From the NCBI GenBank assembly GCA_022969815.1, contig GCA_022969815.1_4535.1: a stretch of DNA of 64,000 nt. One strand, given 5' to 3'. A program made the position numbers and the translations under genes. Under the pieces are notes generated by a model. The model worked only from the letters and a program-made list of their open reading frames with translations, had not been told where the DNA came from and made no database searches. This document shows, piece by piece, positions 11,091 to 28,462 of the stretch (position 1 is the first letter of the stretch; the number at the start of each line of letters is the position of its first letter). This DNA comes from Escherichia coli. Its GTDB lineage: Bacteria > Pseudomonadota > Gammaproteobacteria > Enterobacterales > Enterobacteriaceae.

Positions 11091-11618
11091 TTATGGTATT
11101 TTGGCTGGGAACAGGATTTTAATCAGATTGTTGTGGTATTGTCCTAAAAGATTCTGCCCTTTCCAGTTGGCAGGATTAAGCACCCCTGGTTCGTACATAC
11201 CCATTCCAATTCCGTAAACCTTATCATAAGGACTCGCCTCAACGAACGTTTTGAATTGGTACAGTCGCAAGTCAGAGTAAAGATCAGGGTTCTGTGTATA
11301 CTTCAAGCATAAGCCTCGCATTACGATACGCTCTCGGTACTCTTCCCACATGTCATTATTAAAACCAGACACCGCTCGACCCATACGCTTGTAGTATGCC
11401 TGTCCCTTCTCGTCGTCACGCTTCATTGAGTGATCAATGATAGCTGCTGCGATTACCTGATCCTTGAACAGCAAAGCCTTACGCCACATCATGTATTGCT
11501 CTACACAACAGAAAGTCTCACTGTATCCTGGTTCCGTCTCTGTGAATGGTGCAATGTACCAATTGCTAAACACATCTTTATGTGAAAAGAAGAATACATA
11601 TTCATCAGTTATTCGCAT
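11091..11618 (-). CDS. NADAR (YbiA-like) family protein, 175 aa
   Basis: ATG 11616-11618; resemblance to the NADAR/YbiA family over blocks FSNWY, SETFCCVEQYMMWRKALLF, DMWEEYRERIVMRGLCLKYTQNPDL, GIGMG, GQNLLGQ. Confidence 0.7.
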   Translation of the reverse strand: MRITDEYVFFFSHKDVFSNWYIAPFTETEPGYSETFCCVEQYMMWRKALLFKDQVIAAAIIDHSMKRDDEKGQAYYKRMGRAVSGFNNDMWEEYRERIVMRGLCLKYTQNPDLYSDLRLYQFKTFVEASPYDKVYGIGMGMYEPGVLNPANWKGQNLLGQYHNNLIKILFPAKIP

Positions 11619-11793
11619 TTTTCATACCTCTTAAGACTTCAGCTTGCCCGTCTTGAAAAGCTTTCATCAGAACTATCTTAAGATTGACTTCCAAGCGTTC
11701 TTCATCCTCTTTATAACAATCCAACACTGCCTTAAGTTCATCATAGTGGTTCAGAATAGGTTTAAAGATTTCATGATCTGCTAAACGTGCCAT
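11605..11793 (-). CDS. hypothetical protein, 62 aa
   Basis: internal ATG 11791-11793 with AAAGGAG SD chosen. Confidence 0.45.
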   Translation of the reverse strand: MARLADHEIFKPILNHYDELKAVLDCYKEDEERLEVNLKIVLMKAFQDGQAEVLRGMKNANN

Positions 11794-11806
11794 AGTTTCT
11801 CCTTTG

Positions 11807-12172
11807 TTAGTCCATCCACCAGTAGCCATAAACTGCGTCTGCGTCGATGAGTTTGTGTTTGTTGTTCCGCATGTAGTCTAAGATAAGTAGACGTTTATTG
11901 TATCTGGAGAGATTATGACCCTCTTTTCCGCCATAGTCAAAATATTTTGCAAGATCTTTACACTCAAACAAAATCAGTTCGGGAGTTTCTTCACATTGAT
12001 CTGTCTGGTACACTTGACGGATGATCATGTATACATCATCGTCTTCCGCTAAATGCTCTACTGGTCCACATCCAGCAGGAACAAATTCATAGTCCCATCG
12101 AATCAGATGTTTCTCTACTGCTTCAAAGAAATCCATTTTTTCGTTACGCATGATCTGAACATCAACTAACAT
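11807..12172 (-). CDS. hypothetical protein, 121 aa
   Basis: ATG 12170-12172, GGAGG SD. Confidence 0.55.
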   Translation of the reverse strand: MLVDVQIMRNEKMDFFEAVEKHLIRWDYEFVPAGCGPVEHLAEDDDVYMIIRQVYQTDQCEETPELILFECKDLAKYFDYGGKEGHNLSRYNKRLLILDYMRNNKHKLIDADAVYGYWWMD

Positions 12173-12194
12173 AATTTTCCTCCATATGTGAGAA

Positions 12195-12212
12195 ATGCCC
12201 CTTGCGGGGCAT
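12195..12212 (-). terminator. intergenic hairpin, candidate attenuator
   Basis: ATGCCCC-TTGC-GGGGCAT between the ATPase gene and the next gene; weak U tract. Confidence 0.4.
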
Positions 12213-12217
12213 CTTTA

Positions 12218-13357
12218 TTAGAACACACTGCTCAGTGTTGCTGATCGTGTAGTTGTTGGCTCCAGAACTACGCGGAACGTATCTCCAGGTTTATCGCTCA
12301 CTACTACAATCTTACCACCCTCGATCAGGTCACACTTCAAACCTTCGGCAGTAGCTTTCAGGTCGATGCGTGGATCACCATCATCATCCAGGATGACGTA
12401 GCTGCTATCTTCGAGAGGCTCCAGTTCTTCGTCCTTCACTGCTTCCAGGTAGATGTTCAGTTCACATGCACCCGACAAGAACTTGGTAGGAGTGAACTCA
12501 TGCCAGTTGTTGACCCAGTTAGGCTTGATAGCTTTACCGTTGACAACAATAGAGCTAATCGTCCAGCGTGCATCGTTACCCAGAGAGATACCCATCATCT
12601 CCAGACAGGTCTTGAACGTCATTTTCGGATAGAAGTTTAACTCTTCTACGATCCCTTGAATAACATCGAAAGACAGTTCAGTGCTAACATCCCACAAACG
12701 TTGGAAGCTTTCAACATGTTTGCGATTCTTCAGATTCTTATCCAGGTAGTCCAGCATAGTTTCAATAGACAGTTTGTCGTAGTTGAAGCTATAGAAGATA
12801 CGGCTCGGACGGTTGACGAAGTATTCCGAGATGTATCCGCTGTTCTTTGTCAGCATGAACAGTTTGTTACCGCTACCTGTGCCATCCAGCAGAGTCAGCA
12901 GTGCTTCCTGATCTTCCTTCTTGGAATACACTTTGTCGAACTCATCGAACAGTACTACTGCGCGTTCAGAGATTTTACTCATGAACTCCAGGAAGTTGGC
13001 ATCAGAATATGGCTGCGTTACCAGAATAGTTGGGATTCCCAGGTCTTCCGCTTCCAACAGAGTGTTACTGATCAGTTTTGCCAGCATTGTCTTGCCACTG
13101 CCTTTTGTACCCGACAACAGGACACCTGTGTTCTTACCTTCTTTACTACGACGAGCGAAGGTACGGATAACGTGGGCTGCACGTTCTTTGGTTTCCCCGT
13201 ACAGGCGATCAGGAATCGTGAACTTATCAGCACGACTAAGAGAGTAGTTACCATGTGGATCACAATTGACAGTCCAAACGCCAGCGGGGAGTTTATCAAC
13301 CTCTACACCGAAGTCTTTATTAACAATAGCAACATCCCCGTACACTGTGTATTTCAT
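12218..13357 (-). CDS. P-loop NTPase (AAA-like), 379 aa
   Basis: Walker A GTKGSGKT, Walker B VVLFDEFD; ATG 13355-13357, GAGGAG SD. Confidence 0.75.
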   Translation of the reverse strand: MKYTVYGDVAIVNKDFGVEVDKLPAGVWTVNCDPHGNYSLSRADKFTIPDRLYGETKERAAHVIRTFARRSKEGKNTGVLLSGTKGSGKTMLAKLISNTLLEAEDLGIPTILVTQPYSDANFLEFMSKISERAVVLFDEFDKVYSKKEDQEALLTLLDGTGSGNKLFMLTKNSGYISEYFVNRPSRIFYSFNYDKLSIETMLDYLDKNLKNRKHVESFQRLWDVSTELSFDVIQGIVEELNFYPKMTFKTCLEMMGISLGNDARWTISSIVVNGKAIKPNWVNNWHEFTPTKFLSGACELNIYLEAVKDEELEPLEDSSYVILDDDGDPRIDLKATAEGLKCDLIEGGKIVVVSDKPGDTFRVVLEPTTTRSATLSSVF

Positions 13358-13382
13358 TTAATCTCTCCTCTTCTGTTGGAAT

Positions 13383-13417
13383 AGACGTATTATCTCTTGT
13401 CTAATACGTCTTGTCAA
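13383..13417 (-). promoter_or_regulatory. promoter with operator-like palindrome for the ATPase gene
   Basis: -35 TTGACA (rc 13412-13417), 17-nt spacer, -10 GATAAT (rc 13389-13394); 10-bp inverted repeat AGACGTATTA/TAATACGTCT 13383-13411. Confidence 0.55.
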
Positions 13418-13425
13418 TACTTATT

Positions 13426-13785
13426 TTAGATCCCTTCGCCTTTAGTGATGATAGCTTCCATCACCACAGCTTTCTTCTTCTGTTGAACATCTTGACGGAT
13501 CAGGAGGCTACCGCCTTGATCATCCTTATACTGCTTCATGATGATGAAGTTGTTGCCACACACAGCGCCGATAGCCACGTATGGGCGATTAGAGTTATCC
13601 ACATCCACAGATGGGGTTACATCCGTGCAAGTAAAGAACTTGCCATCAGGATCAGTATAAGCAAAGTGGCCTTTAGCAGTTACTGCAACTTCTCCAGTGC
13701 TTGTGGACTGTGCAGCCACAAACGGTGCAGCAGATGCTACGAAACTTGCAGACAGCAGGGCTACAGCTAAAATAATCTTTTTCAT
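13426..13785 (-). CDS. secreted or periplasmic protein, 119 aa
   Basis: N-terminal signal peptide MKKIILAVALLSASFVASAAP; ATG 13783-13785. Confidence 0.6.
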   Translation of the reverse strand: MKKIILAVALLSASFVASAAPFVAAQSTSTGEVAVTAKGHFAYTDPDGKFFTCTDVTPSVDVDNSNRPYVAIGAVCGNNFIIMKQYKDDQGGSLLIRQDVQQKKKAVVMEAIITKGEGI

Positions 13786-13797
13786 GGTGATCTCCTC

Positions 13798-13959
13798 TTA
13801 TTCCAACAACATACACAATGCAGCTACAACCAAGAACAGAGTAGCCACGCTTAAAGCGATAAACATTCCTAATTGAGAATGAAATTCGCCTATGATAGGT
13901 GCAGACAACGCACTTAGCAAACAACCTGTCAAACTTGATTTGATAATAAGATCTAACAT
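13798..13959 (-). CDS. small membrane protein, 53 aa (not in ORF track)
   Basis: ATG 13957-13959, AGGAGG SD; reads MLDLIIKSSLTGCLLSALSAPIIGEFHSQLGMFIALSVATLFLVVAALCMLLE; replaces the overlapping track ORF 13673..13924. Confidence 0.45.
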   Translation of the reverse strand: MLDLIIKSSLTGCLLSALSAPIIGEFHSQLGMFIALSVATLFLVVAALCMLLE

Positions 13960-13967
13960 ATTACCTC

Positions 13968-14219
13968 CTACAATTCCACAATAGTTTTATCTAAGTGGTG
14001 TGCCTCAACTTGAGATAAGGTTAGCACTTCAACCAAACCTCTGTCAATGCCTAATTTGATCACTTGCAAATAATCACCGAAAAGATCAGAGATTTCAATC
14101 TGGTGTTCAGTAACCACCACGACCTCGTTACCCTTGGTATACTCTCTCCAGATTCGTCCACACTTGTAAATGAAATCTTTCTGGTCTTCACTGATCATCT
14201 TAGGCTTAACGCTTAACAT
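13968..14219 (-). CDS. hypothetical protein, 83 aa
   Basis: ATG 14217-14219. Confidence 0.5.
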   Translation of the reverse strand: MLSVKPKMISEDQKDFIYKCGRIWREYTKGNEVVVVTEHQIEISDLFGDYLQVIKLGIDRGLVEVLTLSQVEAHHLDKTIVEL

Positions 14220-14557
14220 TACATACTCCCGTAGTCTGGTTCAATATGGTGTTTACGACAAACAGCATCCCAACGTTCACTACCGAAACCCCGTCCGTGT
14301 AGTGCATCGTATGCGAAATGTTCTGCCAACCACAATACTACACCATCCGGTTCAGTGTCAAGAGGAATTCGAAATTCTCGATCATAACGCATACGGAGAA
14401 CAAACTCATTACCGTCTTCCAGGAGATGCATGTGACTTTTCGCTCGTGATGCTAAGTCAAAGAAAGGTGCCTCATCTTTCCAAGCTTGACGTTCAACCTC
14501 GATACCATGATCAACTACCAGAGTAGCGATCACATCTCTCATTTCTTTACTAAACAT
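14219..14557 (-). CDS. hypothetical protein, 112 aa
   Basis: ATG 14555-14557, GGAGGA SD. Confidence 0.55.
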   Translation of the reverse strand: MFSKEMRDVIATLVVDHGIEVERQAWKDEAPFFDLASRAKSHMHLLEDGNEFVLRMRYDREFRIPLDTEPDGVVLWLAEHFAYDALHGRGFGSERWDAVCRKHHIEPDYGSM

Positions 14558-14566
14558 ATTTCCTCC

Positions 14567-14743
14567 TTAACTAATTAGTTGAACTGCCTTGCAGATGTAA
14601 ATCCAAACAGGACTAAGCATAAGAGCTATACCGAATGTACAAGCCCACTTAATTCCCATATTCTCTATTAGAGACATGATTAAGCCAACAGCATTAATAA
14701 CCAGATAAATCCCTAAGAAAACCACTGTAAAAAATTCAGACAT
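14567..14743 (-). CDS. small membrane protein, 58 aa
   Basis: track start is GTG; ATG 14741-14743 chosen; two hydrophobic segments. Confidence 0.5.
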   Translation of the reverse strand: MSEFFTVVFLGIYLVINAVGLIMSLIENMGIKWACTFGIALMLSPVWIYICKAVQLIS

Positions 14744-14745
14744 AG

Positions 14746-15078
14746 TTAGCTCCACAAGTTATGAAAGTATTCAGCAAACAGGCAACGACCTTCCATTTTA
14801 TCTGTTTTGGTCATAACTGATTCAGGTTTAAAACCTTCGATCATTTGATCAATAATGGATAACCACTCCACTGTAGCTTCCCGCTCCTGCTCTTCTGTTA
14901 GTTTACGGTAATCTGACACATATTTAGCCCAAATCTTAGATGGGATAAGGATATCCCCTCGTTCTACAATACGCGCCTTGAACGCACACAGTCCAGCACA
15001 GATAATCGCGGAGAACGTATCGTCCAGGTCTTGCAGATCTTCTACGTCAAACTGTAATTCATCATGGATAAGTTTCAT
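14746..15078 (-). CDS. hypothetical protein, 110 aa
   Basis: ATG 15076-15078, GAGGAG SD. Confidence 0.55.
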   Translation of the reverse strand: MKLIHDELQFDVEDLQDLDDTFSAIICAGLCAFKARIVERGDILIPSKIWAKYVSDYRKLTEEQEREATVEWLSIIDQMIEGFKPESVMTKTDKMEGRCLFAEYFHNLWS

Positions 15079-15362
15079 TTTGTTTCTCCTCGTTCTGCGT
15101 CCAATTTCAATAAGAAGGCTGCATACTCTTCCGAACCTTTGTGTAAGAACATACGATAAGAACTCACCAGTTTCTTCGTTGTCGTATAACGTTCCATTTC
15201 CCCAACAACACCTCCACCCAGAGTGTAGAGAACAACGCCTTCAACCCCGACATGGGTTACGACTTCAACCATGTCCGTGTTATCCCAGTGATATTTAGGG
15301 GATACAATAAGATCGCCAACTGCTAATTTGATGTTTGCCACTTCGTCTTGTGAATAGTACAT
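15075..15362 (-). CDS. hypothetical protein, 95 aa
   Basis: internal ATG 15360-15362 with GAGGAG SD chosen. Confidence 0.5.
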   Translation of the reverse strand: MYYSQDEVANIKLAVGDLIVSPKYHWDNTDMVEVVTHVGVEGVVLYTLGGGVVGEMERYTTTKKLVSSYRMFLHKGSEEYAAFLLKLDAERGETK

Positions 15363-15399
15363 TTTGTTCTCCTCTCTTAGTTGATGGAAGTAGTATACC

Positions 15400-15891
15400 T
15401 TACCACATAATCTCGCGCAACTCTTTTTCTTCTTTAAAATTACGTAAGTTCTCGATTGCACGGTTTAGTTCTTGTTCCGTCTCTGCTTTCTGAACTTTTT
15501 CCATCATTTTTGCAACAATATCTTTCTTAACTTGAAGATCTGGAACAGGCATACGTTTTTCCATTTCATAAACTTCTCGTCTGTGACGTTCTTCCATCTC
15601 TGCCTTTTCTTTCACCCAATCCGCCTCGTCCATTGCGCCTTTGCAGACACAAGTGTAACCTTTAATATCATAATCCCCATGCTCAATACCAGGTTGAAGG
15701 GATAACGCTTCATTGCCACAATACGCGCACAATGGACGACCTGGCATTTTCAAAGTTTTGGTGGCCTTAGCGCCACATTGACTGTCCCAGCTTGTTTTGT
15801 AGCTGGAACCTGCATCTCCATGTGTTTTTCCAACAAGGAAGTTACGGAAGAAGCCAGTAGCACGTTCGTCGATGTATTCAGGGTAAGCCAT
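15400..15891 (-). CDS. cysteine-cluster (zinc-binding) protein, 163 aa
   Basis: CAYC...CVC cysteines followed by a charged coiled-coil tail; ATG 15889-15891. Confidence 0.6.
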   Translation of the reverse strand: MAYPEYIDERATGFFRNFLVGKTHGDAGSSYKTSWDSQCGAKATKTLKMPGRPLCAYCGNEALSLQPGIEHGDYDIKGYTCVCKGAMDEADWVKEKAEMEERHRREVYEMEKRMPVPDLQVKKDIVAKMMEKVQKAETEQELNRAIENLRNFKEEKELREIMW

Positions 15892-15904
15892 TGTATTTCT
15901 CCTC

Positions 15905-16195
15905 TCACATTAAGACACGTTTTGTGTCGATGGGTGCATTATCAAACATCCGAAGAACGTTGTCAAGCAGTTTTACTAATTCATTTGTAATTTGTTCCTC
16001 TGAACGAGAAGAAGTAAGTACCTTACTCTCACCAACGATGTGCATCACCTTGATAGGAGCGTTCAGGATAATATTATGCTGCTCATCTTCTTCAAAAGAT
16101 GCTAACCACTTCTCATTATTCCCGTGCAAAGCCACGATAACACCAAAACCGTTGATAGTTTGTGAAATGTTCTTAGTTGCTAATGTAATGTTCAT
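15905..16195 (-). CDS. hypothetical protein, 96 aa (first gene of the leftward operon)
   Basis: ATG 16193-16195, AGAGAGG SD. Confidence 0.55.
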   Translation of the reverse strand: MNITLATKNISQTINGFGVIVALHGNNEKWLASFEEDEQHNIILNAPIKVMHIVGESKVLTSSRSEEQITNELVKLLDNVLRMFDNAPIDTKRVLM

Positions 16196-16223
16196 TGTTC
16201 ACCTCTCTTAATAATGTAGGGCT

Positions 16224-16251
16224 ATTGTACACTAAAAATATTTCAGGTCAA
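16224..16251 (-). promoter_or_regulatory. leftward promoter of a divergent pair
   Basis: -35 TTGACC (rc 16246-16251), 16-nt spacer, -10 TACAAT (rc 16224-16229). Confidence 0.6.
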
Positions 16252-16254
16252 GTG

Positions 16255-16282
16255 TTGACAAGCTTTTTGGTTCTGTTATGAT
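16255..16282 (+). promoter_or_regulatory. rightward promoter of a divergent pair
   Basis: -35 TTGACA 16255-16260, 16-nt spacer, extended -10 TGtTATGAT 16274-16282. Confidence 0.65.
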
Positions 16283-16312
16283 TAGCTCATACCAAATGAG
16301 AGGAGAAAACAA

Positions 16313-16729
16313 ATGCAAAACATCAAACTGACTTGGACCGAAGCTAAAGAAGCAATGAAGGAAGGTAGACGTGTTGAGCACAGCTATTTTTGTGGTGGCG
16401 AATGGTTTGAGATGCGGGATGGTGTTATTCTCGACGAACACGGTTATAACATGGAAACTTGGTTCAGAGGGGAGGCTTGGCAAGAAGAGGATTGGTCTGT
16501 AATTGAGGAAGAAGACAATAAGGAAGAACGCGAAATGCGTGAAACAAAGATGCCTGAACTGGACTACCATCGCCTGGAACTTCTTGTGGCAGCATCTTTC
16601 GCTACTGGAGATACAATGTGGCAAACTCCGGTGTCCCGTGTCGATAACCAAAATAAACCGTCTGCCCGTAATCACAAGCTTTACAAAGGTAAAGGTCATA
16701 ACAAACTGAAGAAAGGAAAGAAGAAATGA
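16313..16729 (+). CDS. hypothetical protein with basic C-terminal tail, 138 aa
   Basis: ATG 16313, GAGAGGAG SD; C-terminus KGKGHNKLKKGKKK. Confidence 0.6.
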   Translation: MQNIKLTWTEAKEAMKEGRRVEHSYFCGGEWFEMRDGVILDEHGYNMETWFRGEAWQEEDWSVIEEEDNKEEREMRETKMPELDYHRLELLVAASFATGDTMWQTPVSRVDNQNKPSARNHKLYKGKGHNKLKKGKKK

Positions 16730-16872
16730 TCTACAAAAACAAGTTCACTGGTTGTCTACGTAAGTTTGTCGATAAGAAAGGTTATGTTTCGCTTGACAAC
16801 GGGACTACATGGGTGCAGAATGGGACTTCAGAACAATTGATCAAGGCTCTGCCTTACTACGAGGAGGTTTAA
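16726..16872 (+). CDS. small protein, 48 aa (not in ORF track)
   Basis: ATGA overlap with the upstream stop; its stop abuts the next ATG at 16873; reads MIYKNKFTGCLRKFVDKKGYVSLDNGTTWVQNGTSEQLIKALPYYEEV. Confidence 0.4.
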   Translation: MIYKNKFTGCLRKFVDKKGYVSLDNGTTWVQNGTSEQLIKALPYYEEV

Positions 16873-17196
16873 ATGTCCAACAATCTGTTTAGCGTGTCAA
16901 TCGCACCGCGTGTTAATATTCGCTGCCAGTTTGTTACCTTGCCAGGCGTGACACACATTACTTTAGAGTATGATCCTCGTTCACGAGAGAACCCAATTAC
17001 AGGTAAGATTGATTCAGCCTACGGCGACTTCCTGATGGATCACCAAGCGATCTTATGTTGTGTGCAACGCTTACAGGCAGGGTCTTTATACATCTTTAAG
17101 AAGTCTGTGTTCCAAGAGATTGCTCAAGCAGTTGAAAGCGGTATGGAGACTCTTAACGCTATGATTGAATCAGCTAACAAGAAGGAGGTTTTATGA
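16873..17196 (+). CDS. hypothetical protein, 107 aa
   Basis: ATG with GAGGAGG SD. Confidence 0.6.
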   Translation: MSNNLFSVSIAPRVNIRCQFVTLPGVTHITLEYDPRSRENPITGKIDSAYGDFLMDHQAILCCVQRLQAGSLYIFKKSVFQEIAQAVESGMETLNAMIESANKKEVL

Positions 17197-17450
17197 CACT
17201 TTATCACGTAACTACAGAAGGCGACTGTGAAGGCCGCACTACAAAAGATTTGGGGTATGTTGAAGCAGATTCACCTGAACATGCTATCAAATACCTGCAC
17301 TCCATCGGGAAGTATGCGGGTTATGAGTATACTATCAACGAGGTTGAAGTTAACCCTATACAAGTGGCAACTCCTATGGCAGAGTTGAAACATCTTAAGG
17401 CAAAAGTAAGACCTGGTATAGTGTCCGATTACAAAGGGGAAGTAAAATGA
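17193..17450 (+). CDS. hypothetical protein, 85 aa
   Basis: ATGA overlap, AAGGAGG SD. Confidence 0.6.
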   Translation: MTLYHVTTEGDCEGRTTKDLGYVEADSPEHAIKYLHSIGKYAGYEYTINEVEVNPIQVATPMAELKHLKAKVRPGIVSDYKGEVK

Positions 17451-17656
17451 GTGGATGGATTAAAGTATCTGGCACCGAGGATGTTCCTGTCGGAGAGTGG
17501 TTTGTAATCATGGCAAACGGCAAGAAGGGATTCTGTGAAGTTAACAAAACACGCAATGGCACGGTAGCTGTTATCAATGGTCATTTTTATTTTGACTTGG
17601 CACCTGTGATCGCATATCATGAACTACCAACATATGAAGAGGAGACTAACAAATGA
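17447..17656 (+). CDS. hypothetical protein, 69 aa
   Basis: ATGA overlap. Confidence 0.55.
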   Translation: MSGWIKVSGTEDVPVGEWFVIMANGKKGFCEVNKTRNGTVAVINGHFYFDLAPVIAYHELPTYEEETNK

Positions 17657-17949
17657 GCCTTACCACTATGCACAAAACACTGCTCAAACTATTTAACAAT
17701 CAACGTAATCTTTTGATCGAAGATTTCCGTAGCTTTAAACGTAACAAGGTCAATCGTGCCTACATGCCTCATTCAGCCTTTGATGCCACGTTAAAAGAGT
17801 TTCGTAACCGTATCTCTGAAATGGATGCTTACATCCGTGGCACAAAGCTTGCACGCACAGTAACTATCCAAACAGGGTTGTTGCACTTTTATGATGGAAC
17901 TACCGGATCGATCTACAATCCAGACAGCATAGAGAATTATTTAAAATAA
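17653..17949 (+). CDS. hypothetical protein, 98 aa
   Basis: ATGA overlap. Confidence 0.6.
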   Translation: MSLTTMHKTLLKLFNNQRNLLIEDFRSFKRNKVNRAYMPHSAFDATLKEFRNRISEMDAYIRGTKLARTVTIQTGLLHFYDGTTGSIYNPDSIENYLK

Positions 17950-17952
17950 TTG

Positions 17953-17982
17953 TTGACTTTGATATACGAAGTATGCTACCCT
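17953..17982 (+). promoter_or_regulatory. candidate promoter TTGACTTTGAT...TACCCT
   Basis: -35 TTGACT 17953-17958, 18-nt spacer, -10-like TACCCT 17977-17982; same motif recurs at 42838. Confidence 0.35.
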
Positions 17983-18058
17983 ACCCACGAAGTGCCGAGC
18001 GGGAGCGAGGTATAAGTGTTACCCTCCCGTTAGGGTAGAGGGTAGTAATTATAGTTTC

Positions 18059-18112
18059 TATCGTTAGATTGTTCGAAGAACAGAAACTTAGATCTTGTTC
18101 TTATCGTTAGAT
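18059..18112. repeat. direct repeat TATCGTTAGAT x2 with palindrome TGTTCGAAGAACA
   Basis: copies at 18060-18070 and 18102-18112; palindrome at 18070-18082; in the 200-bp leader of gene 18152. Confidence 0.5.
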
Positions 18113-18151
18113 GATCGTAAGATCAAGAACATAATATAGAGGAGATAAAGA

Positions 18152-18688
18152 ATGAAATTGTTAGATTATGCGATGGTTATGGATCTTAGTGTGCTTCGTG
18201 ACGATGCTCAATACATGACACAGAACCAGGAAGGCACCTTAAACCTGTATTCTGCCTATCCACGTAATCATGGCCCAGTTACAACTTACGGTTGGGGTGA
18301 TAGCAACTTCCTGGATTACTACCCAGCGCCACGTAGCCTGGAAACTGCTGAAGATTGGTTCCACTCTATTATCAACTTGCAAGCAATCCGTGACTACCAA
18401 GAGAGTGGGTCAGATAGCAACCTGGCAAATACATTAGGAACATTGAATACCATCTCTTACACAGAGAAGCCGCCTAAGCTTTACTTCCTGCGGGATATTC
18501 CAGAAGGCACTTTCTTTGTCTATGGCGGTGCTGACGCTTCTGGTGAGCCTCCTATCTGGCAGAAAGTAGATGGTGGTTTAGCAGTTATGTTTGATACAGG
18601 GATCACTTCTCCGCAAGATACCTTCTCTCAAGATCGTATGTGGAAAATCTTGAAAGCGCATCTGACTGTTAGCCCAATCCGAGAATAA
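18152..18688 (+). CDS. hypothetical protein, 178 aa
   Basis: ATG 18152, GAGGAG SD. Confidence 0.65.
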   Translation: MKLLDYAMVMDLSVLRDDAQYMTQNQEGTLNLYSAYPRNHGPVTTYGWGDSNFLDYYPAPRSLETAEDWFHSIINLQAIRDYQESGSDSNLANTLGTLNTISYTEKPPKLYFLRDIPEGTFFVYGGADASGEPPIWQKVDGGLAVMFDTGITSPQDTFSQDRMWKILKAHLTVSPIRE

Positions 18689-18708
18689 TCTTAATCTGTA
18701 AATAAGTC

Positions 18709-18737
18709 TTGATCACGAGGTTGTATTCTGGTAGAAT
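18709..18737 (+). promoter_or_regulatory. sigma70-type promoter
   Basis: -35 TTGATC 18709-18714, 17-nt spacer, -10 TAGAAT 18732-18737. Confidence 0.55.
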
Positions 18738-21212: not shown

Positions 21213-21223
21213 CAGGAGGTAGT

Positions 21224-21733
21224 ATGTTCTTTGACGTAGATTCCTTATTCGTTGCCACTGCTGGACAATCTGCGGTTAACGCAGAGTTTGAAGAAAGGGA
21301 GGCGTGGATTGATGCTCATAACTATGATCCTACAAACCTAAACTGGTGCCGTATGGATATCAAAGGTATGAGCAGGGATAGTGCGTTTAGGGCATACTAC
21401 GCTGTATATACTCTTGACAATCTTTATCAGTATTTTGTATTCCGTAATATGATTGTCAACCTTAATCTTGCTGGGAGGCTCAAGAACAAGAAAGAGTTTA
21501 CCCTGGGTCACTACATACCGTTCAAAAAAGGTGGTGAACATTTTCCTTCCAACTGGACAGTGCAAATAAGAGTTGAAAATAACCATGCAGGTGATACAAT
21601 ACCAAAAGTCAAAACAAAATGGTCATGGGAGAAACAGGAACGTTATATACGTTCCCATCTCCCACCAAACTTGAGAGAGCCGTATGCGAGTCGGGCCTTT
21701 CATTTAATGAATATTGTCAAGAGTTTTTACTAA
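21224..21733 (+). CDS. hypothetical protein, 169 aa
   Basis: ATG 21224, AGGAGG SD. Confidence 0.6.
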   Translation: MFFDVDSLFVATAGQSAVNAEFEEREAWIDAHNYDPTNLNWCRMDIKGMSRDSAFRAYYAVYTLDNLYQYFVFRNMIVNLNLAGRLKNKKEFTLGHYIPFKKGGEHFPSNWTVQIRVENNHAGDTIPKVKTKWSWEKQERYIRSHLPPNLREPYASRAFHLMNIVKSFY

Positions 21734-21743
21734 GGAGGATTTA

Positions 21744-23345
21744 GTGTCTAATAATTTGAGTTTCACTCCAACCGAAGAGCAATTTGCTATTGAGCGTGCT
21801 TTCGGGGAAAACCGTTTTGTAACTATTCAAGCAAAATCTGGTTCGGGGAAAACATCTACCCTATACATGCTGGCAAATGGCACAGACAAGAGCATCCTGT
21901 ACCTGGCATTCAACAAAAGCATGGCAGAAGAAGCGCGTCGTAAGATGCCGAGTAATGTAGAGTGTCGAACTCTGCACTCAATTTGCTATCAGAAGCTTCC
22001 GCAAAATTTACGTCACAAACTCTCACGTCCTGAAGGAAAATATGTGAATGTGGCGGGAACAGGTAGCGAAATCGCCAAGAAGTTTAAGATCCAAAACCTT
22101 ATTGATAAAAACGGAAAGACTTTGGTCACTCGTGCTATGATCGGTTTAATGGTTAAACAAACTTTGGCTAAATATGAGTTTTCAGATGATGAGCATATCT
22201 CTTTGAAACACTTCCCTAAAATGCACATCTCTGACCTGAAACGTAAGAATGTGAATGAGAATAAGCTGATCGCAGAAGTCGTTAAATATGCAAAACAATT
22301 GTGGCGTGAGCGTATTGATCCTAACTCGGAAACGATCATGACTCATGACACCTATGTGAAACTGTTCGAACTATCGGGCGAAGACTTAGGGTATGATATC
22401 ATCTTTGGTGATGAGTTCCAGGATGTTAACCCTGCGTTTCTGTCTATCCTGTGTAACGCAGAAAAGGCCAGTCGTATTGTGGTTGTAGGTGATGAGTTCC
22501 AGAGTATTTATCAGTTCCGAGGTAGTCAGAACATGATGAAAGAGACTGCTCAATATGGTGTGGAATTACCATTGACAGCATGTTTCCGTTTTGGTCCTAA
22601 AGTGGCAGATATTGCTAATGCGATCCTTAGTGATAAAACTCCCCTGGCCCATCCATTGGTAGGGAAAGGGTATAACACGGTGACAGGTAGCTTCCACTCG
22701 GATATAGTGGACTTCTCCAAACCGTACACAATCATCTTCCGTAAAAACCTGACATTGCTTATGGATGCAATGGATCGTATTGCGAACGGAGAAGATATCA
22801 ATATTAACGTTGACACCAAAGATTTTATTGCTATGGTGGACAGTGTGAATGCATTGCGTCGCGGAGATATTGATAAAGTTAAGCATGAGACTGTTCTCCC
22901 TTATGCAGACTGGCAGGAGTTTGTGGATTGTGCAGAATCAGATCCAGACGCTAAACGTTTACTGAATATTGTTGTTTCCGGTAAGGCTAACAATATTGCT
23001 TATACGTTGCGTATGCACCGTAATTCACCTACAGCAAAGGTGACGCTGACCACAGCACACAAATCGAAAGGTTTGGAATGGGATCAAGTTATCGTTGCAA
23101 ATGACTTCCCTTCAAACTATGATAAGAAGACACGCGAGTGGGTAGGACTGGAAGAATCTGAACGTAACCTTCTGTATGTTGCTCACACACGTTGTATTAA
23201 ATGTTTGCAGTGGAATGAGACAGTGCATGAGATCTTAACCATGCAGCAATTAGGCGGAGATACATCTCCTAAGATGACTGAAGAAGATGAAATGGTTGCA
23301 GCATTGGCTCGTAAGATCAAGCAGATTCGATGCGAGGAGTATTAA
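21744..23345 (+). CDS. SF1 UvrD/Rep-like DNA helicase, 533 aa
   Basis: Walker A AKSGSGKTS, motif II VVVGDEFQ, motif VI TAHKSKGLEWDQV; GTG start 21744 with AAGGAGG SD just after the upstream stop. Confidence 0.85.
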   Translation: MSNNLSFTPTEEQFAIERAFGENRFVTIQAKSGSGKTSTLYMLANGTDKSILYLAFNKSMAEEARRKMPSNVECRTLHSICYQKLPQNLRHKLSRPEGKYVNVAGTGSEIAKKFKIQNLIDKNGKTLVTRAMIGLMVKQTLAKYEFSDDEHISLKHFPKMHISDLKRKNVNENKLIAEVVKYAKQLWRERIDPNSETIMTHDTYVKLFELSGEDLGYDIIFGDEFQDVNPAFLSILCNAEKASRIVVVGDEFQSIYQFRGSQNMMKETAQYGVELPLTACFRFGPKVADIANAILSDKTPLAHPLVGKGYNTVTGSFHSDIVDFSKPYTIIFRKNLTLLMDAMDRIANGEDININVDTKDFIAMVDSVNALRRGDIDKVKHETVLPYADWQEFVDCAESDPDAKRLLNIVVSGKANNIAYTLRMHRNSPTAKVTLTTAHKSKGLEWDQVIVANDFPSNYDKKTREWVGLEESERNLLYVAHTRCIKCLQWNETVHEILTMQQLGGDTSPKMTEEDEMVAALARKIKQIRCEEY

Positions 23346-23346
23346 T

Positions 23347-23598
23347 ATGGCGGGTTATCATTTAATAGATATTGAGAAACAACCTTACGGCAGTATTGAA
23401 AAGATTCAGGAAGAAGTTTATGAACTTTTTGATGCTGTCGAACAGGATTGCAGACTTATGCAATTGGTCGAATTGTCAGATATTGTGGGTGCTGTTGAAG
23501 GTGTGCTGGAGACACAGTTTCCTGGGATGACGTTGCAAGATTTGATCACTATGTCAGACCTTACCAAACGTGCTTTCCGCACAGGAGGAAGATCATGA
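23347..23598 (+). CDS. hypothetical protein, 83 aa
   Basis: ATG 23347 with GAGGAG SD chosen over the track start 23287. Confidence 0.5.
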   Translation: MAGYHLIDIEKQPYGSIEKIQEEVYELFDAVEQDCRLMQLVELSDIVGAVEGVLETQFPGMTLQDLITMSDLTKRAFRTGGRS

Positions 23599-24158
23599 AT
23601 GGGGAAGTCATTGCCAATGCGATCCACTATTACGGACGCTATGCACAAATGATTCAAGTACCTTACCTGGTAGATGCAGATATTCTTGCATACACACTAC
23701 CAGAAGGTAAAGAGGATCGCCCTTTGGGGCATCCTAATGGGAGATTCTATGTTGCCAGCGCAGAACAATCCTTCCTCCAGATGGAGAAAGATGGTTTTGA
23801 GTTTGTAGCAGAACACCCTTATATGGCATTGACCCCATGTTACCGCACAGAAGATGTTCTTGATGAAAGTCATTTTAACATCTTTCTGAAACTGGAATTG
23901 ATTGAGTTTTATCCGAAACATGGACCTATAGCATATGCAAAGGATATGTGTAATTTTCTTTGGACCTATTATAGTCTGGAAACACGTATAGTAAAAACTG
24001 AAATAGGGTTTGACGTGGAAGACAAATATGGGTTAGAATTAGGGTCATTCGGAATGAGGAATTCTCCGAAAGGTCATCCGTACATGTATGCCACAGGCAT
24101 AGCAGAACCACGAGCATCTATTGCTCTTAACCACAGAGAGGGGTTTATTTATGAATAA
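23595..24158 (+). CDS. hypothetical protein with class II aminoacyl-tRNA synthetase-like motifs, 187 aa
   Basis: PCYRTEDVLDESH...LELIEFY resembles class II motif 2; GLELGSFGMR resembles motif 3; tentative. Confidence 0.45.
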   Translation: MNGEVIANAIHYYGRYAQMIQVPYLVDADILAYTLPEGKEDRPLGHPNGRFYVASAEQSFLQMEKDGFEFVAEHPYMALTPCYRTEDVLDESHFNIFLKLELIEFYPKHGPIAYAKDMCNFLWTYYSLETRIVKTEIGFDVEDKYGLELGSFGMRNSPKGHPYMYATGIAEPRASIALNHREGFIYE

Positions 24159-25653
24159 GTCGATGGAAGAATTGGTTAAATATTATGTCCACACAGAAGA
24201 CCTGACAGATGCAGAGTTTACCAAGATCTATGATCTTTGCGAGCAGATTCAGCAAGGTCCGTGGGACAACGAAGAAGATTTTCGTAATGATGTAGGCGCA
24301 GAGACAGGGTTTTTGTTCTTTGATCCGTCTAATGGTATTGATGCTACACACTCCGAGGATTATCTGCCAGCAGGTGTTTCTTCTGTTACCACTACCGAAC
24401 ATTTTATTGATCTGCTTTTGGAGACAGCCTGGTGTGATTCGAAGCCTATCTACTACTGCATGAAGGATACGCTGCGTATGGCAGCAAGTCGTCTGTACGA
24501 TGGGAACTCCCGTTTATATACGGCTGTAGCCGCGCTTTATGGGAATGGTTGGACTGCCGATCAACTCCAAAAAGCTTGGGAAGAAGGGCATGGTGGGCGT
24601 GACGTTGTTATTTTCTCTGAAGTTTTAGGGGTGGATTCTATCTCCTATGAAAATATTCCACGCTTAGGGACAAAACCAGAAATCATAGATGGAGAAGAAA
24701 TGTTAGATCTTATTTTAGCTAAAGTGGCAGGGCGATCTATTCACGAAGTGTGCGTATCTACCAGAAAGATTTCCACAAGTCAAATGGAATCTCTTTTAAA
24801 GATTTTCACCCTGGTAACTGGTGAAGGGTATTGGAAAGATGCTGAACATTTTCTGATGTATAGTCGTGGTCTGTCTGAACACTACTCTTTCTATAGTTCT
24901 AAGTCGGGGATTGATGGTCACAACAGTCCACAAGGATTAGAAATAGGTGTTGACGAATTTATCAAACTGTTTTTGAAGCATTTAGGTATTGACAATACCG
25001 AGAAATCATTGGAAGATATCATTGCTGACTTAACAAAAGAAGGAGATAAAGTGGAAGAGAATACTTTTGAAGTTGAAGAATATGTGGACGAATATCTTCC
25101 GAACCCTGGTTTCCCTCCAGAGGGTAATCCTTATGTGAAGATCGTCTGCCGTAACGGGCAAACTTTCACAGGTCCAGCCGATGATATGGGTTGGAGAGTA
25201 GATGAGAACCATCCTGATAATTGGGATCTGGTGAAATACATGATTGTTCCGCGTGTAGCTAAAGTGGAGGCTGTTCGAGATGATGTGGTTGCTCCGGTAT
25301 ATGCACCTAAACCACGTTATCGCAAGACTCGCCAAAAACCTCCTGTAGGTAAGAAGCCAGTTGTGCGTATTCTCTACACCACACAACAAACCTACATGTT
25401 TAAGAATGTGGACAGTGTACAGGTTACAGGCGAGAAAGTGTATATCCAATATGCGCGTAATATTGCAGAAGGTATTGTTGAGTCTGTTGTTTCCGAGATC
25501 GACAGCAATCTGCTTCTCGCGGTGGTGATTGAAGAGAATGGACACCGTGATAACTTCTTAGCTAACATCGACGGTTCTTGGGATTACCAAGGTCATGATG
25601 GTACTGCCGTTAAAGGTGGTAAGCTGATGGGACGACAGTTCCTTTCTAAATAA
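24151..25653 (+). CDS. hypothetical protein, 500 aa
   Basis: ATG 24151 chosen (8-nt overlap with the upstream gene); no recognisable motif. Confidence 0.65.
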   Translation: MNKSMEELVKYYVHTEDLTDAEFTKIYDLCEQIQQGPWDNEEDFRNDVGAETGFLFFDPSNGIDATHSEDYLPAGVSSVTTTEHFIDLLLETAWCDSKPIYYCMKDTLRMAASRLYDGNSRLYTAVAALYGNGWTADQLQKAWEEGHGGRDVVIFSEVLGVDSISYENIPRLGTKPEIIDGEEMLDLILAKVAGRSIHEVCVSTRKISTSQMESLLKIFTLVTGEGYWKDAEHFLMYSRGLSEHYSFYSSKSGIDGHNSPQGLEIGVDEFIKLFLKHLGIDNTEKSLEDIIADLTKEGDKVEENTFEVEEYVDEYLPNPGFPPEGNPYVKIVCRNGQTFTGPADDMGWRVDENHPDNWDLVKYMIVPRVAKVEAVRDDVVAPVYAPKPRYRKTRQKPPVGKKPVVRILYTTQQTYMFKNVDSVQVTGEKVYIQYARNIAEGIVESVVSEIDSNLLLAVVIEENGHRDNFLANIDGSWDYQGHDGTAVKGGKLMGRQFLSK

Positions 25654-25658
25654 TGCAT

Positions 25659-25684
25659 AGGGCGCTCTCTGCGCCCTTTTTCTT
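25659..25684 (+). terminator. intrinsic terminator
   Basis: AGGGCGC-TCTCT-GCGCCCT followed by TTTTTCTTT. Confidence 0.65.
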
Positions 25685-25694
25685 TGGAGGTGAT

Positions 25695-25886
25695 ATGGTT
25701 ACGTATTTTGCAGTGAAAAACGAAGTAGGAACGGCTGGGAAGCTGATTATGGACAGCGATCGAGACACTCGTGAGGTTATTTGTATCCTGATTGATATTT
25801 TACAAAGAAAAGAGTTGCTTTCTGATCGAGATATTGCTAATCTACTTGGCATCGGCGGTGACGAACTTCAACGACTGCCATTCTAA
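25695..25886 (+). CDS. hypothetical protein, 63 aa
   Basis: ATG 25695 with GGAGG SD; the track start 25653 lies inside the terminator hairpin. Confidence 0.45.
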   Translation: MVTYFAVKNEVGTAGKLIMDSDRDTREVICILIDILQRKELLSDRDIANLLGIGGDELQRLPF

Positions 25887-25898
25887 AGGAGACTAACA

Positions 25899-26501
25899 AT
25901 GCAACAACTGATCGTTAATATGCCTCGCACTGGTAATGAAGTTTTTGGTGTACCAGTAGACAAAGTTTGGAAAGCACACTTTCATCTGACCTTAGCCGAG
26001 GTAAGTAGTGAAGAGCTTATGCGAGCAGCAAAGATTATCGGTGCAAAATGCACAACTATCGATCTACATCGTGACACGCAATCACAACGCGATCGTATGT
26101 TAACTAAGTATCAGGGTGGCATTGACACAGGCTTGATGTTGGAATGTGTGGCAAAGTTAAAAGCTGCTGGCTTCAAAGTGTTACGCTATAAACTGGAACA
26201 AATGTTCAAGGATGTAGAACATGTAATGCAGATGAACCTAAGCAAAGAGCACTACGGAGAGGTACACATCAAGACTCCTGCTTCTATGCCGGAGATTGAC
26301 ACTGGCTTCTTCCGTATCTCTTCTAATGCAGAAGAGGTGGATTATCGTTTCTATAATGCCCGTCTGTATACCGAAGAAGATAAGTTGCAGTTCAAGAAAG
26401 CTTATGATATGCTTCTGGCACATAATGTTGAAATAAAGGGCTACCATGTAGAACAAGTGGTAGTAGACAGTAATCTTAACTTAGACGCATGGTGGGCTTA
26501 A
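25899..26501 (+). CDS. hypothetical protein, 200 aa
   Basis: ATG 25899, AAGGAG SD. Confidence 0.6.
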   Translation: MQQLIVNMPRTGNEVFGVPVDKVWKAHFHLTLAEVSSEELMRAAKIIGAKCTTIDLHRDTQSQRDRMLTKYQGGIDTGLMLECVAKLKAAGFKVLRYKLEQMFKDVEHVMQMNLSKEHYGEVHIKTPASMPEIDTGFFRISSNAEEVDYRFYNARLYTEEDKLQFKKAYDMLLAHNVEIKGYHVEQVVVDSNLNLDAWWA

Positions 26502-26502
26502 T

Positions 26503-27159
26503 ATGACAATCAAACACATTTCTTTCGATGTATGGAACACACTGATCACAGCAAACCCAAATTACGCGGATATGCGAGCTTGGACTATCGCAAAATACGG
26601 AGATATTTCGGAAGTAGAAGCAAGAGCAGCTTACAAGAAGATCAAAAAGGAACTGGATAATGCGGCACTTCAGGGAACAGCCGAGTGTGCAGCATATGCC
26701 TGGGAAAGACTTGGTTACGAACTTGGGATAACACCTTTGAAGTCTGCAAAGCTTCGTTTCGAGTGTGAACAATGGTTCCTTAAGTTTCCACCTCATGTAG
26801 CTGTGGATCTACCGATGCACTTGCTATATCTTTCGGGGCGTTATGATTTGAGCATTAAGAGCAATACCAACTTCATATCAGGAGATATCTTGCGACGTGC
26901 CTGTAAGTTTGAAAGTTGGAATTGTTTTGAGTTCACACATTTCTCGGATGAAGCTTTACTTTGTAAACCAGATCCGCGATTCTTTGCTCGCACGATCACT
27001 TATTCTCCAATCCCTCTGGTAGGGCAGGAAGTGTTGCACGTAGGTGATAGTGAAGAATATGATGGAAAATGTGTTGACGTAGGATTTAACTTCTGTCATA
27101 TTAAGAACCCTAACGACTTGTTAGATAAACTTGCTAAAGGAGAACTTGTTAATGCGTAA
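26503..27159 (+). CDS. HAD-superfamily hydrolase, 218 aa
   Basis: motif I FDVWNTL (haloacid-dehalogenase-like), motif III KPDP, motif IV GDSEEYD. Confidence 0.65.
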   Translation: MTIKHISFDVWNTLITANPNYADMRAWTIAKYGDISEVEARAAYKKIKKELDNAALQGTAECAAYAWERLGYELGITPLKSAKLRFECEQWFLKFPPHVAVDLPMHLLYLSGRYDLSIKSNTNFISGDILRRACKFESWNCFEFTHFSDEALLCKPDPRFFARTITYSPIPLVGQEVLHVGDSEEYDGKCVDVGFNFCHIKNPNDLLDKLAKGELVNA

Positions 27160-27979
27160 TCAAACTCAAATCTTTGCTCACAAATTTGATAATCTGGAAA
27201 CTGCTCGCTTTGATATTCGTGATTATTCCAAACTGAAGTTTGGTAGCAACCAGGCGGCACGCCGTATGGGGAAAACATTAGCAGTCTCTTTCTATGACTT
27301 GGTAGTCAAGAATATGCCGGAAGAAGAGTTTGTGGTGATCCCTTCACCTTACAATCATGTGCATAACGCAGCAACGATGATGACCAATCAGTTCATCAAC
27401 TTCCTGAACCTGTTGCTGTTGAATCACAAGGGTAGCCGTGCAGTAGAGTTGGATACGATCCACCGCAAGGTGAGTTACATTAACGATTATGGTTTCCTGG
27501 ACAAAGCAAGCCGTAAGAAACTGATCGACGGGGACACATTTTATTGCAACAAAGATTTTTGGGGCAACAAGAAGTTGATCTTCATTGATGATGTGAACAT
27601 CACGGGGACTCATGAAGACAAACTCATTGAGATCCTGGATGAAAACAAAGTTACAAACGATGTTTACTTCCTGTATTTTGCCAAGTACACTGGTAATCAA
27701 GCAGACACAGAAGCTAAACTGAACTTCAATCATATTAACACGACAGATGCTTTTGTTAAGATGATCAATGAAGAACAGGATGCACAATGTTTGGTTCGTC
27801 CTATCAAGTATCTGATGGGACAAGCACCGGAAGAGTTTAAAATCATTCTCTCCCGTCTGCCACACCGTTATGTAGAAGCACTGTTCTTTGGGTGTCTTGG
27901 GGAAGGTTATGACAAGATCGAGAAGTATTCTGAAAACTTCGTCTTCCTGAACCGTTACTTTAACCAACATATCCTGTAA
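27152..27979 (+). CDS. phosphoribosyltransferase-like protein, 275 aa
   Basis: PRPP-binding-loop-like LIFIDDVNITGT; ATG 27152 with AAAGGAG SD chosen. Confidence 0.5.
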   Translation: MRNQTQIFAHKFDNLETARFDIRDYSKLKFGSNQAARRMGKTLAVSFYDLVVKNMPEEEFVVIPSPYNHVHNAATMMTNQFINFLNLLLLNHKGSRAVELDTIHRKVSYINDYGFLDKASRKKLIDGDTFYCNKDFWGNKKLIFIDDVNITGTHEDKLIEILDENKVTNDVYFLYFAKYTGNQADTEAKLNFNHINTTDAFVKMINEEQDAQCLVRPIKYLMGQAPEEFKIILSRLPHRYVEALFFGCLGEGYDKIEKYSENFVFLNRYFNQHIL

Positions 27980-27988
27980 GGAGGCAAA

Positions 27989-28462
27989 ATGTTGAAGGTT
28001 GTTACTGGGAATCTGATCGATGCAGCCAAGAATGGGGAAGTGAACGTTATAGCCCACTGTTGTAACTGTATGTGTAATATGGGTGCAGGAATTGCTCCGC
28101 AAATTAAACGAGCATTTCCTTATGCATATGCAGCAGATCTGGGCACAATGGCAGGTGATCAAAGTAAGTTAGGTTATTTTAGTTTAGGGGTGCCAGACGA
28201 ACAATCAGATCCTTTGGTATATAATCTATACGGGCAGTATCGTTATGGATACAATGCTAAAGGTCGTCAGTTGGACTATGATGCCCTCTACGATGCACTA
28301 ATAGCTATGGCTAATGATTTGCTTCTCCGTGACCAAAAATGTAAGATCGGTTTACCTATGATTGGAGCGGGACACGCTGGAGGTAATTGGGCTATCATCC
28401 AAGTGATGATTGAAGAAACTTTAGTAAAAACAGGTCACGATGTGACTATCTATAAACTTTAA
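27989..28462 (+). CDS. macro-domain protein, 157 aa
   Basis: VVTGNLIDA...VNVIAHCCNC...GAGIA and later GAGHAGG match the macro-domain (ADP-ribose binding/hydrolase) pattern. Confidence 0.7.
   Translation: MLKVVTGNLIDAAKNGEVNVIAHCCNCMCNMGAGIAPQIKRAFPYAYAADLGTMAGDQSKLGYFSLGVPDEQSDPLVYNLYGQYRYGYNAKGRQLDYDALYDALIAMANDLLLRDQKCKIGLPMIGAGHAGGNWAIIQVMIEETLVKTGHDVTIYKL

Follow-up and report, generated by a model that had tools for sequence, protein, structure and literature searches.

A Wecvirus-type Escherichia coli phage encodes a NADAR protein and a macrodomain protein predicted to counter DarT-type DNA ADP-ribosylation

We analysed a 64,000-nucleotide stretch of DNA from an Escherichia coli record (contig GCA_022969815.1_4535.1; 'the window', to whose full length the coordinates of both genes refer) and identified two genes for ADP-ribose-processing enzymes, a NADAR gene at 11091..11618 on the minus strand and a macrodomain gene at 27989..28462 on the plus strand. 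Their homology and conserved active sites suggest that the products are probably two independent, single-domain, 'orphan antitoxin-like' ADP-ribose hydrolases, which counter the DNA ADP-ribosylation inflicted by DarT1-type and DarT2 toxins, respectively. The finding is real and is already explained: both enzymes are close to phage proteins recently shown to disarm ADP-ribosylating defences.

The original prediction, given for the span 11091-28462, had noted NADAR/YbiA-type blocks at 11091..11618 and macro-domain blocks at 27989..28462. Both genes were borne out, the first, on the minus strand (the strand had been left unstated), by hidden Markov model (HMM) searches, an AlphaFold model and a fold search, and the second by PHROG 335, matches in the PDB, a model and Foldseek. 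The matches lie far outside what chance would give. The span does not form a single feature: the genes lie ~16.4 kb apart on opposite strands and in different transcription units, with ~30 unrelated genes between them, and are not a linked pair. The proposed function, either counter-defence against DarT-like toxins or the processing of ADP-ribose metabolites, gained support from homology to AdfN^Bas60 (56% identity), T4 AdfM (33%) and Gary Adpp (42%), and the catalytic residues are conserved in both proteins.

By megablast, the window is 94-98% identical to the phiWec179/181/186/188/190 group, 95-97% identical to 'Pseudomonas phage' PsgM04F (elsewhere quoted as 95-98%) and ~82% identical to phAPEC8-type Phapecoctavirus. 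On these matches, it is a 'Wecvirus'-type E. coli myophage of the Stephanstirmvirinae. The phiWec group was recently proposed as genus 'Wecvirus' in that subfamily, in a paper that is silent on macro, NADAR and Ter genes.

The NADAR protein as a predicted orthologue of AdfN^Bas60

The NADAR gene encodes a 175-residue protein, predicted to be a stand-alone, single-domain ADP-ribosyl glycohydrolase. It matched Pfam NADAR (PF08719; E = 2.4e-33; 116.1 bits against a gathering threshold of 35.1; profile positions 3-154 of 163) and PHROG 1017 (E = 2e-48), and its sole sequence match in the PDB was 8bau, a Phytophthora NADAR (E = 5e-13). AlphaFold2 models of both window proteins were built from 42-sequence alignments; that of the NADAR protein reached a predicted local distance difference test score (pLDDT) of 96.6. 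Foldseek comparison of this model with the PDB returned 8bau (template modelling score (TM) 0.81, E = 1.4e-9) and YbiA (2b3w, TM 0.71), with nothing else significant. The modelled structure confirms a member of the NADAR superfamily with the NADAR/YbiA alpha+beta fold. The protein also matched the PADLOC candidate-defence component PDC-M42C (E = 7e-35), and NADAR proteins of such a type therefore occur in candidate bacterial defence loci as well.

Functional residues of NADAR proteins were described by Schuller et al. from a co-crystal of PnNADAR with ADP-ribose and from mutants of E. coli C7. The set comprises the catalytic Glu (E43 in PnNADAR, E88 in C7), the phosphate-binding Lys (K50 and K95) and R79, W89, R93, E125, D130 and W133; at the position of PnNADAR E125, DarG1 has Asp and T4-type proteins have His. 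Mapping with HMMER and MAFFT gave E40, K47, R81, W91, R95, E127 and D132 as the equivalents in the window protein, with Y135 in place of the last Trp. The published His of T4 gp30.3 was recovered by the same MAFFT/HMMER alignment, which supports the accuracy of the mapping. E40, K47, W91, E127 and D132 were invariant across 42 homologues.

Two phage NADAR proteins have a published counter-defence role (Johannesman et al., Nat Commun 2025; PMC11825919). T4 30.3 (AdfN) reverses DarT1 DNA ADP-ribosylation. AdfN^Bas60, a distinct NADAR of the phi92-like BASEL phages Bas60-62, neutralises DarT1 inside cells; it protects RB69, T5 and Bas25 against DarTG1 and gives no rescue from DarTG2. Using megablast with a Justusliebigvirus NADAR gene, we located the NADAR gene of Bas60 (PaulScherrer, MZ501100) as bas60_0111; as this was the only NADAR match found in the Bas60 genome, it is, by inference, almost certainly the published AdfN^Bas60. 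The window protein is 56% identical to bas60_0111 over its full length (E = 2e-67). It shares with it the catalytic set, a lineage-specific insertion and the Trp-to-Tyr change, and its gene has the same position, closing a unit led by an AAA ATPase gene in a phage of the same subfamily. Together, these features make a strong case, at the level of sequence and gene order, that the window protein is the orthologue of a validated anti-DarTG1 factor. The two differ in phage genus (Justusliebigvirus for Bas60, Wecvirus-type here), in 44% of their residues and in the interval between ATPase and NADAR genes, which holds one 467-residue open reading frame (ORF) in Bas60 but two small ORFs here.

DarG1, the antitoxin counterpart, has the NADAR fold and the same chemistry of reversing DNA ADP-ribosylation. 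It differs in carrying an N-terminal extension, whereas the window protein begins with the core (its Pfam match opens at residue 11), and in its catalytic Asp (D171), where the window protein has E127. No DarT gene adjoins the NADAR gene: its neighbours are a 74-residue ORF, a 121-residue ORF and the AAA ATPase gene, none of which matches a PADLOC DarT model. Identification as DarG1 is ruled out by the lack of an adjoining toxin gene, the lack of the extension and the Glu in place of Asp.

A Gln-type macrodomain of the phage AdfM/Adpp family

The macrodomain gene encodes a 157-residue protein of PHROG 335 (E = 4e-55), the phage AdfM/Adpp family. Against Pfam Macro (PF01661), it scored 20.6 bits (E = 4.4e-4), just below the gathering threshold of 22; many of its close homologues carry a precomputed PF01661 match. 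Its PDB sequence matches were Streptomyces coelicolor SCO6735 (E = 1e-12, the best), BT1257, Thermus DarG (1.6e-7), TARG1 (3e-6) and M. tuberculosis DarG. With the AlphaFold2 model (pLDDT 95.5), Foldseek found 224 PDB macrodomain matches at E <= 1e-3, among them TARG1, BT1257, Thermus DarG, Poa1p, M. tuberculosis DarG and SCO6735, at TM 0.70-0.88 (0.75-0.88 for the top matches). The modelled fold places the protein unambiguously among macrodomains of the ALC1-like class (TARG1/DarG/Poa1p/SCO6735).

Its key residues are H23, N26, Q83 and the loop G126-A-G128; H23, N26, Q83 and G126/G128 vary little or not at all across 42 homologues. HMMER alignments set Q83 against the catalytic Lys of DarG (K80) and TARG1 (K84), and against Q85 of SCO6735; Gln occupies this position in all 41 sequences examined (phage proteins, SCO6735 and BT1257). 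Judged by its alignment, the protein is of the SCO6735/BT1257 (Gln) subtype, which does without the catalytic Lys. SCO6735 cleaves thymidine-linked ADP-ribose (dT-ADPr) on DNA and rescues cells from DarT; it needs Q85, N27 and G128, and a water-mediated mechanism has been proposed for it. These three residues correspond to Q83, N26 and G128 here, and H24 of SCO6735 is conserved as well. SCO6735 and BT1257, the best matches of solved structure, differ in being cellular proteins with 27-30% identity to the phage protein. The diphosphate loop of the window protein reads GAGHAGG, against GxGLAGG in 39 of 42 homologues; the His at residue 129 is lineage-specific (3/42) and adjoins the position of the TARG1 catalytic Asp.

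DarG2 likewise has the macro fold and the chemistry of reversing DNA ADP-ribosylation. In DarG2, however, a C-terminal DarT-binding domain is fused to the macrodomain; the window protein has no such domain, and Gln replaces K80. It matched the DarG models of PADLOC (E = 2.5e-10) and NCBIfam (E = 3e-9) through the macro domain only (model positions 1-147; 36.5 bits against a cut-off of 250). No DarT gene adjoins the macro gene, whose neighbours encode a PRTase_3 protein and a 73-residue membrane protein. The length of 157 residues, the macro-domain-only match and the lack of a DarT2 neighbour rule out DarG2.

PHROG 335 is frequent in phages, with matches in 2,927 of 50,697 phage records, and now has two published activities. 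The first is anti-DarTG2: a transposon screen of T4 on DarTG2 yielded Tk.4 (AdfM) as its sole hit, knockout of Tk.4 sensitises T4, and T4 carries AdfN and AdfM as independent anti-DarTG1 and anti-DarTG2 factors (HIDEN-SEQ preprint 2025, bioRxiv 10.1101/2025.11.20.689424). The second is a phosphatase activity: Adpp of Vibrio phage Gary converts ADP-ribose (ADPR)-1''-phosphate to ADPR and lets NARP1 overcome aRES defence (Osterman et al. 2026, bioRxiv 10.64898/2026.01.28.702374). The Gary Adpp gene (gp137) sits between those for Adps and Namat.

The window protein is 33% identical to T4 AdfM (E = 1e-20). Both are stand-alone proteins of ~155 residues with Gln at the Lys position and the motifs AHxCNC, NLY(G/T)Q and GxGxxxGxW, and in T4, as here, a NADAR protein accompanies the macrodomain in one phage. 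They differ in this low identity and in their neighbours (the vs/tk region in T4), and the T4 NADAR, which has His at the position of E127, belongs to a different subfamily. Gary Adpp is the closest characterised macro relative, alike over the full length and in its motifs; unlike the window gene, its gene is flanked by those for Adps and Namat. T4 AdfM and Gary Adpp are 35% identical to each other. PhiKZ AdfM shares the macro fold and the reversal of DNA ADP-ribosylation, but is of the Lys type (K78) and is probably more distant from the window protein.

Proposed action on modified phage DNA

From the families, folds, active-site residues, orthology and synteny of the two proteins, we infer their substrates, in vivo role and time of expression. 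In phage DNA that a DarT1-type toxin has modified, the NADAR protein would bind the ADP-ribose moiety through K47, R81, W91 and R95 and, using E40 and E127, would break the N-glycosidic linkage that joins ribose C1'' to guanine N2. Guanine de-ADP-ribosylation would restore a replicable template, and the DarTG1-type abortive defence would be defeated. Every NADAR family tested cleaves guanine-linked ADP-ribose (G-ADPr) in vitro, and Glu-bearing NADARs also remove cytidine-ADPr and RNA G-ADPr in vitro, so the window protein may act on more than guanine in DNA.

The macro protein would, in an AdfM-like role, remove ADP-ribose from thymine N3 in single-stranded DNA modified by DarT2. By an SCO6735-like mechanism, Q83 and N26 would hold the distal ribose and a water molecule in place. 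A second activity, the conversion of ADPR-1''-phosphate to ADPR as by Adpp, is possible. For the macro protein taken on its own, the anti-DarT2 DNA role is the one we favour, at close to an even chance.

With these genes, a recently proposed E. coli phage genus joins the phages that bear both a NADAR and a macrodomain 'orphan antitoxin', the two-pronged kit of T4 against DarTG1 and DarTG2; resistance to both systems is predicted for these phages, which have a broad host range and are relevant to therapy. T4 is already known to combine the two kinds of protein (AdfN and AdfM), and the combination is common in large myophages.

DNA or soluble ADP-ribose derivatives as substrates

Several points weigh against action on DNA. 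For the NADAR protein, the evidence on AdfN^Bas60 comes from ectopic expression rather than from deletion in its own phage (PMC11825919), and the window protein passes the NCBIfam model TIGR02464 for N-glycosidases of riboflavin intermediates (109 bits; cut-off 73.7). For the macro protein, the role of T4 AdfM is known from genetics, and its DNA-glycohydrolase activity is putative. The window protein is closer to Gary Adpp (42% identity over the full length, E = 3e-36), a proven ADPR-1''-phosphate phosphatase, than to T4 AdfM; the DNA-contact lysines of SCO6735, K34 and K89, are replaced by Ala and Gly; and a crude, star-like neighbour-joining tree places its clade with neither AdfM nor Adpp. 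In other phages, NADAR and macro genes adjoin each other beside Nampt-like genes, and Iyer et al. hold soluble ADPr derivatives to be the main targets of phage macro and NADAR proteins.

The foremost alternative, possible but unlikely in our estimate, casts the macro protein as a phosphatase of the Adpp type, acting on ADPR-1''-phosphate, or as a hydrolase of another soluble ADP-ribose derivative; it would counter RES-type (aRES) NAD+ phosphorolysis or ADPR-based signals instead of DNA ADP-ribosylation. Besides the similarity to Gary Adpp, this alternative is favoured by 41-44% identity to macro proteins that Thalassa and PAK_P2 encode within NARP1, by Poa1p among the structural matches of the model and by the soluble substrates that Iyer et al. 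predict. Among the closest 80 macro loci in IMG/VR, which form 32 clusters at 70% identity, six clusters had Nampt/Namat-like and Prs-like genes beside the macro gene.

The genomic context, however, favours the DNA role. Neither the window nor 147 kb of PsgM04F gave a tblastn match at E <= 0.1 to Adps, Namat or Nampt-like seeds, and the PsgM04F annotation names none of these genes; a hidden NARP1 or NARP2 pathway was rejected on the empty searches. The lack of these genes argues against a role in feeding NARP1, because ADPR from an Adpp activity would not be rebuilt into NAD+ by that route. In the neighbour-joining tree, where the phage macro family is sister to SCO6735/BT1257, NARP-associated members are scattered and polyphyletic, and T4, which has no NARP1, uses AdfM of this family against DarTG2. 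A preprint on Migulavirinae and Thoeris mentions macro domains for host ThsA only and gives no phage macro role.

We also looked for sequence features that would split AdfM-like from Adpp-like proteins; the Lys/Gln position, the DNA-contact lysines and the positions of Poa1p H23 and S30 did not discriminate. Given the grouping of the window clade with neither protein and the scatter of NARP-associated members, sequence alone cannot separate a DNA role from an ADPR-1''-phosphate role. The two activities need not exclude each other, and one macro enzyme may perform both; the window clade, which lies between the two characterised members and is without NARP1, offers a convenient test of bifunctionality.

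Linkage of the two families was seen elsewhere among the IMG/VR loci. In a 24-member macro cluster, one of the six with Nampt/Namat-like neighbours, a NADAR gene lay directly upstream of the macro gene in 18 loci (with a 7-nt start overlap in the representative, L026), and the pair stood beside Nampt-like and Prs-like genes in L026, L038-L044, L047, L059, L071, L074, L087 and others. In those phages, it is a NADAR-macro operon in an NAD+-salvage setting. This linkage agrees with the report of Iyer et al. (2022) that macro and NADAR proteins co-occur in DNA viruses more than expected by chance, and that 27% of myoviruses have a NADAR.

The macrodomain gene within a Ter cluster

The macro gene is part of a plus-strand unit at 25899..28697, headed by a gene for an AbiEi-like protein of 200 residues (25899-26501). 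A HAD-like hydrolase gene (26503-27159) comes second, a PRTase_3/ComF-like phosphoribosyltransferase gene (27131-27979) directly precedes the macro gene and the gene for the 73-residue membrane protein (TM73; 28476-28697) follows it. Packing is tight, with gaps or overlaps of 2-14 nt. A terminator-like hairpin (25659-25677) lies upstream of the unit, and a promoter-like site (28701-28728) precedes the plus-strand genes for TerC (28779-29753), an SprT-like protein (31274-31864), TelA (31861-32973), a vWA-TerF-like protein (34366-35166) and TerD (35683-36285). Promoter and terminator scans gave results near shuffled expectation, and unit boundaries here and at the NADAR gene are tentative only. 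Overall, the phage carries a near-complete 'Ter' (tellurite-resistance-type) cluster at 26503-36285 on the plus strand.

The AbiEi-like protein matched PADLOC AbiEi antitoxin models over the full length of the models (E = 4e-13 and 4e-10), with no Pfam AbiEi match and no significant PDB sequence match; the PRTase_3 protein had no significant PDB sequence match either. The AbiEi-like gene is kept in several relatives and is absent from Bas60. From its model matches, it may be a further orphan antitoxin-like counter-defence gene, directed against AbiE. It is conceivable, though distinctly unlikely, that in Stephanstirmvirinae a Gln-type macrodomain was recruited into the Ter/HAD-PRTase_3 cluster as part of an undescribed route of ADP-ribose/phosphoribosyl salvage or detoxification (a NARP1-AP analogue without Adps and Namat), forming with the AbiEi-like gene a small orphan-antitoxin/metabolite counter-defence island.

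An improbable reading of the same neighbourhood makes the macro protein a functional member of a HAD-PRTase_3/Ter module and has it process a phosphoribosylated, nucleoside-like product of the phosphoribosyltransferase. It draws on the tight succession of AbiEi-like, HAD, PRTase_3, macro and TM73 genes, followed by those for TerC, TelA, vWA-TerF and TerD, and on the conservation of the arrangement in Bas60, KP2025 and five IMG/VR loci. The HAD gene was directly upstream of PRTase_3 in all 19 PRTase_3 loci, but the macro gene adjoined the pair in only five, all Stephanstirmvirinae-type; within 6 kb it was absent from the other 14, seven of which carry TerD, vWA-TerF, TelA or TerC. One relative has its macro and PRTase_3 genes ~10 kb apart on one contig (L012, L108), and most macro homologues have none of these Ter-module neighbours. 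Such lineage-specific adjacency is weak evidence that the genes are coupled; as it is confined to the subfamily among the 19 loci, we rejected functional coupling of the macro protein with PRTase_3 and HAD as the main explanation. The same HAD-PRTase_3 pair was seen in other large phages and in contigs of jumbo size, together with TerD, TerC, TelA and vWA-TerF, and sometimes phosphoribosyl pyrophosphate (PRPP) synthetase.

Housekeeping roles and the phage's own NAD+-using enzymes

The NADAR protein might instead be a YbiA-type housekeeping N-glycosidase that destroys reactive intermediates of the riboflavin pathway or other small ribosylated molecules, which we regard as highly improbable. TIGR02464, above whose cut-off the protein scores, is an equivalog-domain model, E127 is typical of YbiA/NADAR families (DarG1 has Asp there and T4-type proteins have His), and many relatives carry the annotation 'GTP cyclohydrolase II' or 'YbiA-like N-glycosidase'. 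E. coli YbiA also shares the fold and the conserved Glu and passes the same model. The identity to YbiA is, however, only ~23% by structural alignment, and the window gene has neither a LexA-operon nor a riboflavin context, with no riboflavin genes among the Pfam/PHROG matches of the scanned window ORFs or in the PsgM04F annotation. In vivo, E. coli YbiA gives no protection from DarT1, which the orthologue with 56% identity does neutralise, and cleavage of G-ADPr in vitro is common to all NADAR families tested. Since TIGR02464 evidently covers proteins of the AdfN^Bas60 type too, a score above its cut-off does not decide between substrates.

Least probable of all is that the hydrolases reverse or tidy up ADP-ribose products of the phage's own NAD+-using enzymes, such as O-acetyl-ADPR or ADP-ribosylation from a phage sirtuin: PsgM04F does encode Sir2-family and DprA/SLOG-like proteins, ALC1-like macro proteins such as TARG1 have PDB entries that name them O-acetyl-ADP-ribose deacetylase and one Streptomyces phage homologue (H143) adjoins an ADP-ribosyltransferase, but the Sir2 gene lies tens of kilobases away, outside the window, no ADP-ribosyltransferase was found among the Pfam/PHROG matches of the scanned window ORFs or in the PsgM04F annotation, and the characterised homologues act on host-inflicted products.

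The NADAR neighbourhood and other features of the phage group

The NADAR gene ends a leftward unit on the minus strand, headed by the AAA ATPase gene (12218-13357), with a candidate promoter, the best sigma70-like site, upstream at 13417..13389. The 121-residue ORF (11807-12172) lies between the ATPase gene and the 74-residue ORF (11605-11829), which overlaps the NADAR start by 14 nt. The order from ATPase to NADAR is also present in Bas60. In PsgM04F and phiWec179/181/186, a ~1-kb endonuclease gene lies between the AAA ATPase gene and the gene for the 121-residue protein; it is missing from the window (at about 12172-12218) and from phiWec188/190. The insertion, seen by comparison with locus L002 (4583-5578), looks like a mobile homing-endonuclease gene.

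PsgM04F (OR584014.1), the closest fully annotated relative, was deposited as a Pseudomonas coronafaciens phage, yet it is 95-97% identical to E. coli Wecvirus-type phages, and the host label of OR584014.1 deserves checking. At sites outside the window, it encodes a Sir2-family NAD-dependent protein and a DprA/SLOG-like protein (80846-81649 and 86456-87034), which add to the NAD+/ADP-ribose network of the phage group. A four-gene run at 37602-40742 (+) of the window, just upstream of primase/helicase and DNA polymerase genes, corresponds to PsgM04F 13530-16670, where the genes are annotated as glycosyltransferases; these might modify DNA or surface glycans.

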